Shown one piece after another: positions 3,633 to 64,000 of a DNA stretch of 64,000 nt. Source of the stretch: a virus; the IMG/VR virus record IMGVR_UViG_3300036774_000066, positions 92,610 through 156,609 of that record. The stretch is one strand, 5' to 3'. The position numbers were made by a program, and so were the translations under genes. Positions within the stretch are counted from its first letter, which is position 1. Every line of letters starts with the position of its first letter. The notes under the pieces are model-generated. The model was not told the origin of the DNA, made no database searches, and saw nothing but the letters and a program-made list of their open reading frames with translations.

Positions 3633-4310
3633 TTAACATCTGGAAAATCCACACGTACACGAAACACAGCCAGACTCATGCCGTAATTTCGCTCTACAGT
3701 CAGGGCAAAGTCCTTGACTTACCCAAAAATCTTCCCCTCTCCCCTCGTCACCAACAACCCTATGGGGTATAACTCCCAATCGTTCTGCCTTCTCAACAAT
3801 TGACTCTTCCTTGTATTTCTGTTCCTCAACTTGATGTATGCGAACTTCTCTTGCCTCAATAGACTTTTCTCTAAGGTCTTCCGTCGCAGAAAAAATCGCC
3901 TTCAGTTCCCCTTGATGCTGTTCAAAAAACTTTTGCGCTTGTAAAGTCTTCTTCATTGCAGACGCTAAAGCCCGCGAACAAGAGGAATTTCCTGTCTTCT
4001 TAAACGCCTCATCCTTTCCGGCACGGTATCGTGCTGTCGGACACACCTCTGACTCCAATTGGTCAATAATCTCCTCAATAGGAGTTCCCCTCTGTAAGTG
4101 CAAAGAGACAAGCCGCCCCGTCATCTTTGTACTTGACGCACACCCACCCTTAGAGGATGATCCACAAAACACCTCTATCAACCGTACCTTATCGTGCCAA
4201 TTAAACTTAATAGAGAAGAATGCGGCACCACAACCTGTTTCTTCTCTGAATGTAAGTCCAATGGTAGGATTATCTCTGTGAACTCTTGACAGATTTGTAG
4301 TGTCATCCAT
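3633..4310 (-). CDS. Stand-alone TSCPD-domain protein (C-terminal part of class II ribonucleotide reductase, NrdJb-like) with Zn ribbon
   Basis: TGCG...EVF...KGGC...GRLVSL.LQ.G...EIIDQL...SC and CPDC...ESGCVSCTCGFSRC end. Confidence 0.8.
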   Translation of the reverse strand: MDDTTNLSRVHRDNPTIGLTFREETGCGAAFFSIKFNWHDKVRLIEVFCGSSSKGGCASSTKMTGRLVSLHLQRGTPIEEIIDQLESEVCPTARYRAGKDEAFKKTGNSSCSRALASAMKKTLQAQKFFEQHQGELKAIFSATEDLREKSIEAREVRIHQVEEQKYKEESIVEKAERLGVIPHRVVGDEGRGEDFWVSQGLCPDCRAKLRHESGCVSCTCGFSRC

Positions 4311-6544: not shown

Positions 6545-6898
6545 TTATCCGTTAATGGGGAAAAACGGCTCGTCACACTGCTCCAAACGTACTTCCTCTG
6601 AAAGTGACCTCTGATACTTCTTACAAAAGCCAATACACCCTTCCTCAAGTGGAACATCCAAGTAAGTACACCCTTTACACGAAACACTCTCCACCTTGTA
6701 GTATTTGTATCCCCGTGCTATTCGCTTGGAGAAAAACGACCCGACAGAAGGTGCCGCCATCCACTCCTTCACTACCTCTTCCGAAACATCATGATACTCA
6801 TATAACGATCCGTTTTTGAACTTGACCTGAAGAACTTTTTTCGCAGGATTATGTGCGTATGCCTCAATGTTGGAAGAAGTAACCGGACTCAGCTTCAT
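6545..6898 (-). CDS. KTSC-domain protein with C-terminal Cys-rich extension
   Basis: PVTSSNIEAYAHN...LQVKFKNGSLYEYHDV...APSVGSFF..RI; start refined to MKLSPV after AAGGAG. Confidence 0.85.
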   Translation of the reverse strand: MKLSPVTSSNIEAYAHNPAKKVLQVKFKNGSLYEYHDVSEEVVKEWMAAPSVGSFFSKRIARGYKYYKVESVSCKGCTYLDVPLEEGCIGFCKKYQRSLSEEVRLEQCDEPFFPING

Positions 6899-6941
6899 TT
6901 TCTCTCCTTTTATGGGTTCCCTTGATAATACGTAAAAACAC

Positions 6942-6971
6942 AAAAAAGGGGAAGAGCTTTCACTCCTCCCC
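6942..6971 (-). terminator. Intrinsic terminator closing the putative ncRNA
   Basis: GGGGAGGAGT-GAAA-GCTCTTCCCC-TTTTTT. Confidence 0.85.
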
Positions 6972-6972
6972 T

Positions 6973-7200
6973 CCGGTCAAGCTGCCGTGCGACAAAGCCG
7001 CTGCTCTACTTTGCCGCGTTACCCCACTACGGGCCTACACTTTTGTTGATAGAGCGTAGTGGCTCCACCCTTTTGTGTGCAGGGGCGAGATGTTGGTGCC
7101 CTGTAAGTTTCGGCAACTTTCTCTAACGAACCGGGCATCCTTCGGGAAAACCCCGTAAGGCACGCGCTGGTCCGCTCTCTGTTAATACGCTGACCTCTCC
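6973..7200 (-). ncRNA. Putative structured non-coding RNA of unknown family
   Basis: GC-rich intergenic tract with several complementary stems and its own terminator; no convincing ORF. Confidence 0.6.
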
Positions 7201-7208
7201 AAAAATCA

Positions 7209-7610
7209 TCAGGACTTAGGCTTGTACTTTCGCAACAGACGACCATTACAATACGTCCCGGCTTTGTCCCATTGCCAAGGAGCATACCGAAATACTGCTA
7301 CCTCAACAGAATCCCCCTTCACCACATTGGCAAACTGACGGTCCTCGGAAGAAAAAGTCACGACCTCGTTGCCAATGTCAAGATCAACTGCAAAGGAAAA
7401 TGTACCAGAGGGAAGCCCACCACCGGCACTACGCCCGGCAACCACAGACATACTCATGTTGGAACACGCCGTTACCTTTCCGATAAACTCCTTCCGAGAA
7501 AAGAACTTGTACCCCGCAGTATAGATAAGACTCCCGATGATTCCCACGATCACGACCACAACCATCAACTCAATGAGAGTGAAACCACGCAACCACTTCT
7601 TCTGAAACAC
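7209..7610 (-). CDS. Prepilin-type N-terminal cleavage/methylation protein (type IV pilin-like)
   Basis: KKWLRG|FTLIELMVVVVIVGII class III signal; GTG start at 7610 after AAGGGAG. Confidence 0.85.
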   Translation of the reverse strand: MFQKKWLRGFTLIELMVVVVIVGIIGSLIYTAGYKFFSRKEFIGKVTACSNMSMSVVAGRSAGGGLPSGTFSFAVDLDIGNEVVTFSSEDRQFANVVKGDSVEVAVFRYAPWQWDKAGTYCNGRLLRKYKPKS

Positions 7611-8726: not shown

Positions 8727-8978
8727 TCAGCCTCCCACCCCAACGGGGTAATAGTATTTAAGATACACCTCTTGGAGAATTTCAAAAGGAACTTCCCCGC
8801 ACTTCGGACAGGCATACTTCGCTGCCTCTGCCCGGAAAGCATCACCCTGTTTAATTGCATTCGCTATCAAAGAACACGCTTGCGCCTCTTCCTTCTCTCC
8901 ACACATTTCCCAAAGGGCCGCAGCTTCGGCCCACTGATTCATCCGCTCTTTCTCTCTTGCTTTCTGCCGAATCATCAT
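8727..8978 (-). CDS. Early hypothetical protein with CPKC motif
   Basis: First gene after sigma70 promoter; GGAGG SD. Confidence 0.7.
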   Translation of the reverse strand: MMIRQKAREKERMNQWAEAAALWEMCGEKEEAQACSLIANAIKQGDAFRAEAAKYACPKCGEVPFEILQEVYLKYYYPVGVGG

Positions 8979-8994
8979 ACTGACCTCCACTCTT

Positions 8995-9066
8995 AATATA
9001 CAACAACTACAAGGAAAAGTCAACAAAAATATTCAAAAACTTTTAATTCCTTGTAAGTCATTGATT
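8995..9066 (-). promoter_or_regulatory. Early sigma70-type promoter TTGACT-17-TATATT with perfect IHF consensus box AATCAATGACTTA (9054-9066)
   Basis: Matches WATCAANNNNTTR; mirrors 2666-2736. Confidence 0.8.
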
Positions 9067-9071
9067 TTCAA

Positions 9072-9143
9072 TCAGTCCTTTGCCCCTGAAAGTATCCTGA
9101 AAAAAGCCATCACCGCGAGGATTATCACAATCAGCGTCAGCAT
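9072..9143 (-). CDS. 23-aa hydrophobic micropeptide MLTLIVIILAVMAFFRILSGAKD
   Basis: AAAGGGG SD, own upstream motif; below ORF-track cutoff, read manually. Confidence 0.55.
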   Translation of the reverse strand: MLTLIVIILAVMAFFRILSGAKD

Positions 9144-9180
9144 ACAAGCCCCTTTCTTTTAGTTGTTTCTCTGTCTCCAA

Positions 9181-9199
9181 TATATAATATCGCAAATCT
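9181..9199 (-). promoter_or_regulatory. Putative class-2 promoter motif AGATTTGCG-ATA-TTATATA
   Basis: Repeat of motif at 2212-2230. Confidence 0.45.
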
Positions 9200-9206
9200 C
9201 ATGCCC

Positions 9207-9249
9207 CAAAAAGAAAACCCTCAAAACAAGCTAATTTTGAGGGTTTCCT
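9207..9249 (-). terminator. Intrinsic terminator after peptidase
   Basis: AAACCCTCAAAA / TTTTGAGGGTTT inverted repeat with T tail. Confidence 0.75.
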
Positions 9250-9306
9250 TAAAACCTGTAGACTTATCTCACATAACCCCCACAGAAGGAGAAAAGAACT
9301 CTCTCG

Positions 9307-16922: not shown

Positions 16923-17271
16923 TCTTTTTCTTCTTTGCTATTCTCCTGTGATAAAAAAGAATCATAGCCCTCACGCACTTCTCCAACTCCGAAGGCTTTG
17001 TAGGGTATGCCAACTCAGCCACAGCACCCAAGTAAAACCTCTTCGCTATTGGTGTTGACAAAGAAGGAACATCCCTCACAACAACATACACAATCCCGCT
17101 CAATCTTAAATAGATGTATCTCCAAACTGTAAACTTAGCATTAGAGATAAAAAGGTACTTGGTTTTAACCGACAAAATTCCCTTGACAGACTCATACTCG
17201 TATCCACACTGCCCAAGCACGAGTGTCAAAATATCCGCAGATTCTTTATCAAGAAACACTGAAACTTTCAC
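16906..17271 (-). CDS. Degenerate CheY-like receiver-domain protein
   Basis: VKVSVFLD..ADILTLVLGQCGYEY...RFYLGAVAELAYPTKPSELEKCVR; GTG start after AAAGGAG. Confidence 0.5.
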   Translation of the reverse strand: MKVSVFLDKESADILTLVLGQCGYEYESVKGILSVKTKYLFISNAKFTVWRYIYLRLSGIVYVVVRDVPSLSTPIAKRFYLGAVAELAYPTKPSELEKCVRAMILFYHRRIAKKKKNVGTK

Positions 17272-27934: not shown

Positions 27935-27945
27935 CGGAAAACTCC

Positions 27946-28518
27946 TTATGTATTAGAACCAAAACGAATCTGATGCCAAATGTCAAGGACCATCGAATGA
28001 TTCACAGGGAGAGGGGTTGTCAGCCTCTTGTAAGCCATAATCTCATTTTCTTTACCCTCATACACTGTATCTCGCCAAGCAACAGTAGGAAATAAACCTT
28101 CCTCTGTAATAACTATACTGGCAGGAGGAACAAACCCCGTTACTTTATACGTTATGAAAGAATCAGGATAGGAAGGCAAAGGAGAAGTATCTACTGCGGG
28201 AAACCCCAACGTAAGACCAGAATACAGCACTTGACCAGCCGGATATAAACCAACAGAAGGAGATTCAAGGTGAGTTCTATTCGGGTCCAAAGGTTCTGAA
28301 GAAAGAGGAGGTAACTTAATTCCAAGACACATGGTACTTATACGTCTTGACGCATAAGTAATAGGATCAGTTGCCATCAAAGCAACATGCCTTCTCCCAC
28401 AAAGAGGAATAAAATTCTTCTCTTCAAACAGAAGAGTAGGAGTACCCCGAAAGTCCTTTCTCTCCCACTGAAAAATTCTCAAAAATCCCTCTATCACACA
28501 AAAATCTTCTTGATACAT
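27946..28518 (-). CDS. Baseplate/tail-fibre attachment protein
   Basis: EEKNFI...GR, ITEEGLF, MAYKR motif set; position after wedge gene; start refined to MYQED. Confidence 0.6.
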   Translation of the reverse strand: MYQEDFCVIEGFLRIFQWERKDFRGTPTLLFEEKNFIPLCGRRHVALMATDPITYASRRISTMCLGIKLPPLSSEPLDPNRTHLESPSVGLYPAGQVLYSGLTLGFPAVDTSPLPSYPDSFITYKVTGFVPPASIVITEEGLFPTVAWRDTVYEGKENEIMAYKRLTTPLPVNHSMVLDIWHQIRFGSNT

Positions 28519-28534
28519 AGCCGCTCCCAGATAA

Positions 28535-61348: not shown

Positions 61349-63309
61349 CTATTCTATTGGACGTACTCTCGGTTCCTTTGACATATTGTAAAGTACCAAT
61401 CTTTCCCTTGCCGAAGGATCAATCTTAAAAATTTCTTTCAAGTTCAATCCGTGAAATCCTTTTGGACAAACCCAAACAGTTCTCTTTCTAATTCTTGGTG
61501 TAAAAACAGTATTGAAATCTTTATTCTTAACAGTTTCACTATACGTATCCCCGAATGCACCATCCGTCAACTGAATAATAATATCAGGGCAATGGCACTT
61601 GGTAAGTGCTGCTACAAAATTGAAGGTAAAGTCAGTATTACCACCATCAAACTTATCAGCAAGTACACGCTTTAAGTTAGTATCAGAAAATCCTACCAAC
61701 CTGAGATATTTACTCCTGTCAAGAGAACCCCAAAAGAAAACATGCACAACGGCACTTCCCAAAATAGCCCGATAAGACTCAAAAAAATCCCTCAAGGCTT
61801 CCAATGCAGGCTGAAACACATGCATTGACTTAAAGCTACCAGACCTATCTGCCATTATGAGAACATTCTTAACTTTCCTTTCCTCAACACTCCCACCCAT
61901 TGCCCCTTCAACCTCAATCCTACGAGAAATCACGTTAGGATCACGCTTTTCGTCTACACTAATAATGTGTTTCAAAACACGCCTCATTATCTCCCGCCAA
62001 CGAGACTCTGACCCAATCCCTCTCAGAGCAGGAATCTTGGAAACGTCAATAACACCCTCTCCAAGCGCATTATCAATAATACTCTGCGGGTCAAAATCTT
62101 CCTCACCAAGTTCATTCTTTTTTATCGTACCATTACGACGCATTTCTTCCAAAGCCTTCTGTACTGCCTCGACTACTGCTTTGTCAATCTCATCGTTTGT
62201 TGCAGTAGTTCCCGGCTTTACTTCCTCCTCACTTACTTGATTCATCAAATCAATACCAGCCTCAGTACCGTGACGAGATTCCACACCCTCCTTTGCCCTT
62301 TTCAAAGCCTCTTTTATCTGCTGTTCTGTTCTCTTTGCTTGTGCCAGAATATTGTCAAAAGGATCAACGGGAATACCGGGAATACCACCTTCCCCTCCAC
62401 CTTCTCCTCCACCTTCTCCTCCACCTTCCCCTCCACCTTCCCCGCCCTCACCACCGGGAGTACCGCCTTCTCCACCGCCTTCACCTCCACCTTCCCCGCC
62501 CTCACCACCGGGAGTACCACCCTCTCCACCTCCACCTTCTCCACCACCTTCACCTCCACCTTCTCCTCCAATTTTAGGCATTTCCAAAACGCGTACCTGA
62601 TCTAAAGTAAGACCAGAGTACACATCACCAACAGACTCATTTGTGTCTTCTGGTATTACCTTAACAGAAATATGCCCATCATCCGAAATATCAATTACTT
62701 TAGCTGTCTCTCCTGTTGAAGTTACTTGTACAACAGACCCAATAGGTAGGATAGATTTAAGACGCTCCCCACGGGTACTCCCTCCCAAATTTTTCTTTTT
62801 ACCTTCTCCACCTTGCTTTCCTGTACCTTTGCCCTCACCGCCTTCTCCACCCTCTCCACCTTCTCCACCCGCGCCTGCACCTGTGCTACCCTTCTTGCCC
62901 TTTCCGGCCTTCTTGCCTTTTCCGGCCTTCCCTGCACCGCCCTCACCACCTTCTCCACCTTCACCGCCCTCACCGCCTTCCCCTCCACCGCCCTCTCCAC
63001 CTTCTCCACCCTCACCGCCTTCTCCACCTTCACCGCCCTCTCCACCCTCACCACCTTCTCCACCCTCACCACCTTCTCCACCCTCACCGCCCGCGCCTGC
63101 ACCTGTGCTGCCCTTCTTGCCCTTTCCGGCCTTCTTGCCCTTTCCGGCCTTCCCTGCACCGCCTTCTCCACCCTCACCGCCCTCACCGCCTTCTCCACCC
63201 GCGCCTGCACCTGTGCTGCCCTTCTTGCCCTTTCCGGCCTTCTTGCCTTTTCCGGCCTTCCCTGCACCGCCCTCACCGCCTTCTCCACCCTCACCGCCTT
63301 CTCCACCCT
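61349..63309 (-). CDS. VWA-domain protein (DUF2201-like C-terminus) with Gly/Glu/Lys repeats; 5' end lost at junction
   Basis: MIDAS DRSGS, GGNTDF, LTDG; the tracked start at 63352 lies in the topA-derived DNA. Confidence 0.75.
62385..63309 (-). repeat. Low-complexity coding repeats: (GGE)n, (GGGE)n and three copies of AGKAGKGKKAGKGKKGSTGAGA
   Basis: Copies begin at 62871, 63093 and 63201 on the plus strand, with variable GGE spacers. Confidence 0.95.
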
Positions 63310-64000
63310 GAACACCCGATGAACCTGGACCCGCGCCTACCTCTCCTGACAATCAGCTCGGAGCCACACTTCTCACAAGTTCCAACGATCTTGTCGGTTC
63401 GGAGACCTTCTCGCAGAGATGTGCCTATCTCCTCTTCGTTCTCTTCCAGCTCCTTGAATATCGAGGTAAGCATCTCCCTGGACTCATCTATGACTTCAGC
63501 CTCCTTGATCTTGCGCTCTGATATGCTGGTCATGTCCTTCTCGAGGGTCTGGGTCATTTCCGGCTTGGTTATGGCGGAGGCGTACTTCTCAAGAGTGTCA
63601 ACAACTGCGTAGGCTGTGTTCGTAGGCTTCATGGGGTTGCCGTGGACGTATGCACGGGCGTACAATTTGCTTATGATGTCGTGGCGAGTCGATTTAGTCC
63701 CAAGGCCAAGATCGTCCATGAGCTTTATCAGCCTTCCTTGGCCATACCGGGCCGGCGGCTGGGTTTCCTTGGAGGCAACCTCATGCCCTAACACCTTCAG
63801 GCGCTCGCCCTCTTTTAGCTCTGGAAGGATGATCTCCTCGGATTTGCTGTAAGGGTAGTAGGCACGCCATCCAGCCTCTATCAGCCTCGCTCCGCTTGCT
63901 TTGAAGGGCTCTGTTCCGATATCGACAGAGAGATTAGAGACCTCCCAGGAAGACTGCTCGGCAAGGGTGGCGAAGAATCGGCGCACAACTAGCTCATATA
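63305..64000 (-). CDS. topA: Archaeal-type DNA topoisomerase I (type IA), internal fragment; truncated in first Zn ribbon, N-terminus beyond window
   Basis: YELVVRRFFATL, TQPPARY, LGLGTKSTR, PEMT..LE..M, CEKCG...RFIGCSG; resembles methanogen (Methanothrix-like) TopA. Confidence 0.88.

Follow-up and report, generated by a model that had tools for sequence, protein, structure and literature searches.

A structured, terminator-linked RNA of an uncultivated T4-type myovirus and a candidate three-member phage RNA family

Genomic setting of the RNA

The window analysed here is a stretch of 64,000 nt (bases 92610-156609 of the 156.6-kb IMG/VR record G000, which has an estimated completeness of 93%). 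The phage is an uncultivated myovirus whose capsid is of the T4 type (Gp23); besides the Gp23-type major capsid protein and a prohead protease, it encodes a tail sheath protein, a family A DNA polymerase, and DnaB-like and SNF2 helicases. Among cultured phages the best match to its capsid protein is only 38% identical. The minus strand carries nearly all of the genes and the GC skew is strongly negative throughout; no tRNA or tmRNA was found in the searched window sequence. A structured, strand-specific, terminator-linked non-coding RNA of about 230 nt lies on the minus strand between a 133-aa prepilin-like gene with an N_methyl motif (PF07963; minus strand, 7610-7209), whose stop codon abuts the RNA, and a KTSC-domain gene with a Cys-rich C-terminal extension (PF13619, E = 5.6e-20; minus strand, 6898-6545). 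The first-pass annotation had named both neighbours correctly from the sequence; its description of the interval as the largest non-coding gap holds locally, but three gaps elsewhere in the window are larger (8861-9306, 16923-17248 and 27935-28534).

Approximately 20 homologues of the prepilin-like protein (P0124-P0143, 43-62% identity) are found in metagenomes. ABC-transporter permease/ATPase genes adjoin a homologue in two of the gene maps read, which suggests that the prepilin-like gene with these neighbours is part of a wider phage or host module. Elsewhere in the window, a 225-aa protein encoded at 3633-4310 has weak PHROG matches to ribonucleotide reductase (E = 7e-09) and a counterpart with 72% identity in the closest relative of the phage, described below. 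The plus strand at 62300-63340 contains long runs of a 9-nt periodic repeat, which may encode Gly-rich or collagen-like repeats of a 667-aa minus-strand ORF (61349-63352).

Fold of the RNA and its copies in a related phage

Folding of the minus strand from 7208 to 6942 (267 nt) gave a minimum free energy (MFE) of -113.3 kcal/mol with a stability z-score of -5.30, and none of 200 shuffled sequences was as stable; the plus strand of the same interval gave a z-score of -0.95. The fold thus exceeds chance, and does so on the strand to which the first-pass annotation had assigned the RNA. The MFE structure is entirely nested and consists of a 4-bp outer helix (GGUC/GACC, 7195-7192 with 6978-6975), a long imperfect 5' hairpin (7176-7125), and a closing helix of nine out of nine pairs, AAGUUGCCG/CGGCAGCUU (7119-7111 with 6987-6979), which encloses four hairpins, a to d. 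The closing helix bounds the conserved core (7119-6979, 141 nt), which has a z-score of -4.66 when folded alone, with the MFE structure representing 23% of the ensemble. Hairpin a (7101-7083) is a variable arm of four pairs, GGGC/GCCC, with an 11-nt loop. Hairpin b (7082-7035) is built from an outer stem (7082-7077 with 7040-7035), two A-rich linker strands (7076-7070 and 7047-7041), an inner stem (7069-7062 with 7055-7048) and the loop CACUAC (7061-7056). Hairpin c (7034-7021) has a 4-bp stem and the hexaloop GUAGUG (7030-7025), and hairpin d (7017-6989) is a 10-bp arm, GCGGCAAAGU/GCUUUGUCGC. An intrinsic terminator with a 13-bp stem, a GAAA loop and a U6 tract lies immediately downstream (6974-6942, with stem and U6 at 6974-6945).

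Whole-window searches at Rfam gathering thresholds gave no match, and at E<=10 the interval 6850-7300 gave three chance-level matches only, with RNase P and self-cleaving ribozymes absent from them. A hammerhead reading of the CUGAUGA motif at the pilin stop codon was discarded in the absence of a match to any Rfam ribozyme.

The closest relative of the window phage, G001, was located by an alignment-based scan from a capsid relative, and synteny between the two was mapped by tblastx. G001 is a complete 167,660-bp IMG/VR genome with terminal repeats; its capsid protein is 94% identical to that of the window phage and the structural genes share about 75% DNA identity. BLASTN of the window's RNA copy (hereafter W) against G001 found nothing. 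The KTSC orthologue in G001 is 50% identical; directly before it lies a non-coding stretch of 462 nt with a terminator at its end, equivalent to that of W. The 3' half of this stretch, G1-1, folds alone into the same architecture as the W core (core at 1315-1135 of L023, the piece of G001 with both copies described here). In both RNAs the closing helix is followed by variable arm a, long hairpin b (an outer stem of 5-6 bp and an inner one of 8 bp, separated by two A-rich strands of 6-7 nt), the directly adjacent hairpin c (4 bp with a 6-nt loop), three unpaired bases, a 10-bp arm d that is branched in G1-1, one unpaired base, the closing strand and the terminator. The outer helix is confined to W, with no counterpart in G1-1, and the long 5' hairpin of W, likewise a feature of the window's copy only, is not alignable to the G001 copies.

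A second G001 copy, G1-2 (L023 2212-2058), lies 0.9 kb further upstream, before a gene for a 173-aa protein. It comprises an 11-bp closing helix with a U-run directly after it, together with b and c; neither arm a nor arm d is clear, and its MFE structure pairs those regions with each other. Further upstream it has a hairpin unrelated to the long 5' hairpin of W. Arm a is longer in the G001 copies than in W. The elements common to W, G1-1 and G1-2 are only the closing helix, b, c and the loop-loop contact between them, and in all three the closing helix, a bent hairpin b with two A-rich linkers of 6-7 nt, a 4-bp hairpin c, complementarity over the full loops and a 3' terminator or U-run were found. 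The stability z-scores of the two G001 copies are -2.76 and -2.87, and neither has a match in Rfam at E<=10. A covariance model built from the W sequence alone ranked G1-1 first and G1-2 second when 5 kb of G001 were searched without filters. In a 23-kb search the same model returned a match of similar score at L023 10943-11067, which was rejected as it aligns to a coding region of the window and is without the outer stem of b.

Other branched elements occur in these genomes. Directly upstream of G1-1 is a branched RNA of about 170 nt (L023 1504-1335, equal to G001 96335-96504, minus strand) with a closing helix of about 20 bp followed by U6, and G000 78985-79145 forms a branched element with a 12-bp closing helix, also followed by U6, in a region syntenic with the minus strand of G001 at about 80165-80495. 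The latter G001 region appears, by eye, to contain a tRNA-like sequence with a CAU anticodon. The elements at G001 96335-96504 and G000 78985-79145 were rejected as family members; their architecture is different, and a covariance model built on W, G1-1 and G1-2 misses both.

In an alignment of the three copies, which come from two related phages and were aligned under model guidance that leans towards structure, 93.8% of cells pair, vs 40-44% when the 3' partners are slid by one to three columns, and 26 of the 41 pairs are changed on both sides, vs 2-5 in the slid controls. None of 500 shuffles attained any of the observed measures. Independently of this alignment, the three separate MFE folds agree, and the helices identified by eye are fully or almost fully paired in every copy in spite of differing sequences; all pairs of hairpin b form in each of the three. 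Helix lengths are held within narrow ranges, with 4 bp in c, 5-6 bp in the outer stem of b, 8-10 bp in its inner stem and 7-11 bp in the closing helix, and the lengths of the b linkers are also conserved. The nucleotides of the junction are not conserved among the copies.

The loop of b is complementary to the entire hexaloop of c in all three MFE folds, over 6 bp each: CACUAC/GUAGUG in W (7061-7056 with 7030-7025), CGUUAU/GUAACG in G1-1 and UUGCAG/CUGCAA in G1-2. When the stretches running from the loop of b to that of c were aligned by sequence only, 17 of 17 cells paired and four of the six pairs changed on both sides, while in slid controls of these loop pairs 12-62% of cells paired. Shuffles of the b loop that kept its composition gave 6 bp in 0.6-1.7% of trials per copy. 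Since the stems of b and c covary too, the loop-loop helix must form alongside them, as a kissing loop, and from this covariation we predict that the two loops make a 6-bp kissing helix.

The helices listed in the first-pass annotation all occur at the minus-strand positions given for them, and its strong terminator was borne out. The RNA is also pseudoknotted, as it had proposed, but not by way of the 9-bp crossing helix that it had singled out: this is the ordinary, nested closing helix of the core. The helix that it was supposed to cross, GCGUAUU/GGUAACGC, amounts to no more than four contiguous pairs and does not appear in the MFE structure, and its 5' strand is absent from the homologues. 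The pairing of CCACUACG with CGUAGUGG does occur, but what had been counted as a further stem is the predicted loop-loop helix of b and c and thus the true pseudoknot.

Extent and novelty of the family

The RNA family is known from three members in two phages, with W as the founding member, and is small and previously undescribed. BLASTN of W found no match in 50,697 phage records, nor in five related viral records. The covariance model built on all three copies, run with filters off over the whole of G001 and the window, found no further copies, and with filters on it found none in the remainder of G000 or among four relatives that are more distant. Searches anchored on neighbouring genes gave a similar picture. 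The pilin-like neighbour had no relatives in viral contigs, and beside its homologues in five readable contigs or gene maps the next gene follows within 6-35 nt and the RNA is absent. The KTSC gene, taken as an anchor in viral and metagenome scans and in an exhaustive HMMER search, led to no new copy; the RNA is absent from the KTSC contigs L002, L030 and L031. The DNA polymerase yielded nothing useful among viral and metagenome contigs, and a conserved 165-aa neighbour led to G001 only among viral and prokaryotic contigs. At 90% identity clustering, nine neighbouring proteins are all singletons. Finally, a pattern shared by W and G1-2 (GAGA-N0-1-RGTTGNC-N2-4-CTTACAG) retrieved 44 viral loci, of which the three-sequence model scored G001 alone. 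Near-identical G001-like contigs do exist.

The fold is new among the structured non-coding RNAs of phages and matches no known family. The suggestion in the first-pass annotation that this is a new RNA class is probably right: two of the checks that it had proposed, a search with Rfam and RNase P models and an examination of covariation among homologues, gave no match in W or the G001 copies at E<=10 beyond chance level, and covariation across the three copies. We regard this three-member family as a well-supported candidate rather than an understood system.

Few non-coding RNAs of phages are known to have a defined tertiary fold (pRNA, ROOL, GOLLD and a handful of riboswitches), and they have repeatedly given unexpected biology. 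A catalogue of viral structured RNAs has been seeded from BLASTN-alignable intergenic regions, with motifs of 29-151 nt (PMC10690425); W probably escapes it. Since the fold persists at a divergence beyond the reach of sequence search, surveys of viral structured RNAs that are seeded by BLAST would miss this RNA. The small size of the family limits its interest, which is greatest for RNA biologists. At 140-180 nt, the compact RNA is a small and tractable target for structure determination, and it could be used to probe the organisation of early transcription units in a little-known T4-like clade from environmental metagenomes.

Transcription setting and possible modes of action

The nearest recognisable promoter upstream of the RNA is a strong early promoter of sigma-70 type, TTGACT-N17-TATATT, at 9023-8995 on the minus strand, and the next one, with the same consensus and orientation, is at 2694-2666; no sigma-70-like site was found directly before the RNA. 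G001 carries near-identical promoters, TTGACT-N17-(TG)TATATT, at 98552, 98185, 91656, 89203 and 87190. In the early regions of the two phages these promoters follow one another at intervals of 2-7 kb, and in both the RNA and its terminator lie inside a stretch of about 6 kb between consecutive early promoters (9023 and 2694 in the window; 98185/98552 and 91656 in G001). A second type of motif, TTTTT-N8-12-CGTATTR, occurs three times in the window vs 0.19 expected and seven times in G000 and G001 together, always on the coding strand, and those with flanks read are intergenic. One copy, TTTTT-N11-CGTATTA, lies directly 5' of the long hairpin (minus strand, 7205-7183), and another lies between the terminator and the KTSC start (minus strand, 6947-6926) and is in the same place in G001; the remaining sites are at 22979-22958 in the window, at window coordinates -15166 and -15861 in G000, and at 111572 and 96085 in G001. 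The motif often stands right after the U-run of a terminator, 25-45 nt ahead of a start codon, and may be a phage-specific promoter, perhaps middle or late. If the copies at 7205-7183 and 6947-6926 are promoters, W would be a gene of its own and KTSC would be independent of read-through. G1-1 and G1-2 are without an upstream CGTATTA motif, and an own promoter is therefore not a feature of the family.

On balance, we think it probable that this is a discrete phage RNA, ended by the terminator, whose fold provides a platform or decoy for protein binding. Helix sequences vary freely, while helix lengths, linkers and the loop contact are kept and the junction bases are unconserved, which suggests that the RNA works by shape. 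It is probably a discrete species of about 230 nt, formed either as the 3' end of an early transcript from 9023 or from the motif at 7205-7183. Its core is a multi-helix junction closed by a helix of 7-11 bp, in which hairpin b would bend back by means of its two A-rich linkers of 6-7 nt, so that its loop could reach the adjacent hexaloop of c. The kissing helix would then be stacked on c at one end and on the inner stem of b at the other, with the A-rich strands spanning the gap, and the three-dimensional shape produced in this way would serve as a protein-binding platform or decoy, or as part of a self-associating particle. We think it unlikely that the RNA pairs with a target sequence or senses a small molecule; its longest complementarity to phage mRNAs is 11 nt. 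The KTSC protein, put forward in the first-pass annotation as a candidate partner, fares poorly, since the two are adjacent only in the two syntenic copies, the third copy precedes another gene, and KTSC homologues occur elsewhere without the RNA.

The RNA might instead control the terminator that follows it in cis, as an attenuator, a riboswitch or an antiterminator of the put/EAR kind, and so govern read-through into KTSC and the approximately 4 kb behind it; we consider this possible but unlikely. The position of RNA and terminator mid-way between consecutive early promoters in both phages would suit such a role, as would the direct coupling of all three copies to a terminator or U-run. The layout of a junction, kissing neighbour hairpins and a terminator is also that of the purine and lysine riboswitches, in which the junction is locked by a kissing loop between neighbouring hairpins and a terminator follows. 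These riboswitches share with the phage RNA the closing helix, the multi-helix junction, a loop helix of about 6 bp between adjacent arms and a terminator directly 3'. In the lysine aptamer, one arm also folds back towards its neighbour, and W and G1-1 resemble its five-helix junction with kissing arms in having a closing helix and four arms, with a and d unclear in G1-2. The resemblance is one of design only: the lysine riboswitch model (RF00168) gave no match at E<=10 and the junction strands, which bind the ligand in riboswitches, vary between the copies. Genes for lysine biosynthesis or transport are not downstream, where KTSC and the 173-aa protein are found instead, and the genes after the three copies are not all alike. 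The "lysine tRNA synthetase" of KTSC is in the name of the domain only.

The first-pass annotation had named two alternative partners of one strand, which would allow switching, and one of them, CGGCAA, has a counterpart in the orthologue. The 5' strand of the closing helix can pair with the 5' strand of hairpin d, over 6 bp in W (UUGCCG/CGGCAA, 7116-7111 with 7016-7011) and over 5 bp in G1-1 (CUACU/GGUAG, L023 1314-1310 with 1189-1185), with no counterpart in G1-2, and this pairing may form transiently during transcription or act as a switch. Nothing competes with the terminator itself, however. A search for mutually exclusive terminator and antiterminator pairings found none, the best duplex to a terminator half being weak and internal to hairpin a, and in constrained folds with the closing strand blocked the terminator stays intact. 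In both phages a promoter-like motif also separates the terminator from KTSC, which may free KTSC from any reliance on read-through.

HK022 put and Bacillus EAR are RNA-only processive antiterminators, structured RNAs in an operon upstream of a terminator with no accessory gene nearby, and put itself consists of two simple stem-loops of about 70 nt. The phage RNA resembles them as a structured RNA in an operon ahead of a terminator, with no detectable homology. A speculative and rather unlikely reading is that it represents a new class of phage RNA, with a fold unlike known examples, in which the loop pair drives an RNA-only activity, either self-assembly into multimers or a put-like grip on RNA polymerase that overrides the adjacent terminator.

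It is doubtful, though conceivable, that the b and c loops pair between molecules to make dimers or rings in the style of phi29 pRNA, ROOL and GOLLD. Covariation is blind to whether loop pairs are intra- or intermolecular, and the direct adjacency of b and c, with no linker, may hinder contact within one molecule. The phi29 pRNA, of 120-170 nt, forms loop pairs of about 4 nt between molecules on the portal of small protein-primed podoviruses. It is comparable as a phage RNA that keeps its secondary structure and mutually complementary loops and not its sequence, but its model (RF00044) has no match here, and this phage is a 157-kb myovirus with a Gp23-type capsid, a tail sheath and a family A polymerase. 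ROOL, GOLLD and OLE have architectures held by covarying kissing loops and A-minor contacts, and a ROOL kissing loop that had earlier been read as tertiary proved to be quaternary (PMC12286853). The phage RNA shares with ROOL and GOLLD an association with phages or prophages and a kissing-loop architecture; ROOL, GOLLD and OLE, in contrast, are widespread and about 500-800 nt or more in length, whereas the core here measures 141-181 nt and occurs in two phages, with no match in sequence or model. Against such assembly, the conserved stem lengths and linkers of 6-7 nt would, as judged from geometry, be those required for fold-back within a molecule.

An elaborated terminator or 3' stabiliser without specific function, its shape inherited and not selected, is improbable. 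The family is tiny, and other branched elements with a closing helix and a U-run (such as G001 96335-96504 and G000 78985-79145) lend this reading some weight. Against it, 94% of pairs are kept through 26 double changes where BLASTN finds nothing, the 6-bp loop match is maintained in three differing sequences, and W and G1-1 already possess a separate and sufficient terminator hairpin.

A reduced RNase P-like RNA or other ribozyme, suggested in the first-pass annotation, is very improbable. In W alone, the order of outer helix, hairpin, GAGAAAGU and long-range helix is superficially like P1-P3-P4, and the likeness goes no further than this helix order. The RNase P models (bacterial A and B, archaeal, type T) matched nothing in the window at gathering score and nothing at E<=10 in 6850-7300 or the G001 copies, and no self-cleaving ribozyme model matched any copy at E<=10. 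The P1-P2-P3-P4 topology is not formed, with the P4-like 9-bp helix being nested and the crossing helix of four pairs having no counterpart in the homologues. As for the universally conserved CR-I and CR-V nucleotides that flank P4 (GNAAAGUC... and ACAGNRA), GAGAAAGU is found in W and partly in G1-2 (GAGAGGU), but in the orthologous G1-1 it is missing together with the outer helix and the hairpin, and no copy has an ACAGNRA (ACAGAA) element. Within the reach of sequence models and of comparison among the copies, RNase P is thereby excluded.

The chance that the region is protein-coding is negligible: 7019-7285 and 7035-7163 are open frames of 88 and 42 codons, but the former matches nothing in Pfam and lacks a counterpart in the homologues, as the non-coding reading of the first-pass annotation implied, no frame is common to W, G1-1 and G1-2, and the substitutions are compensatory in the helices, without a codon pattern.
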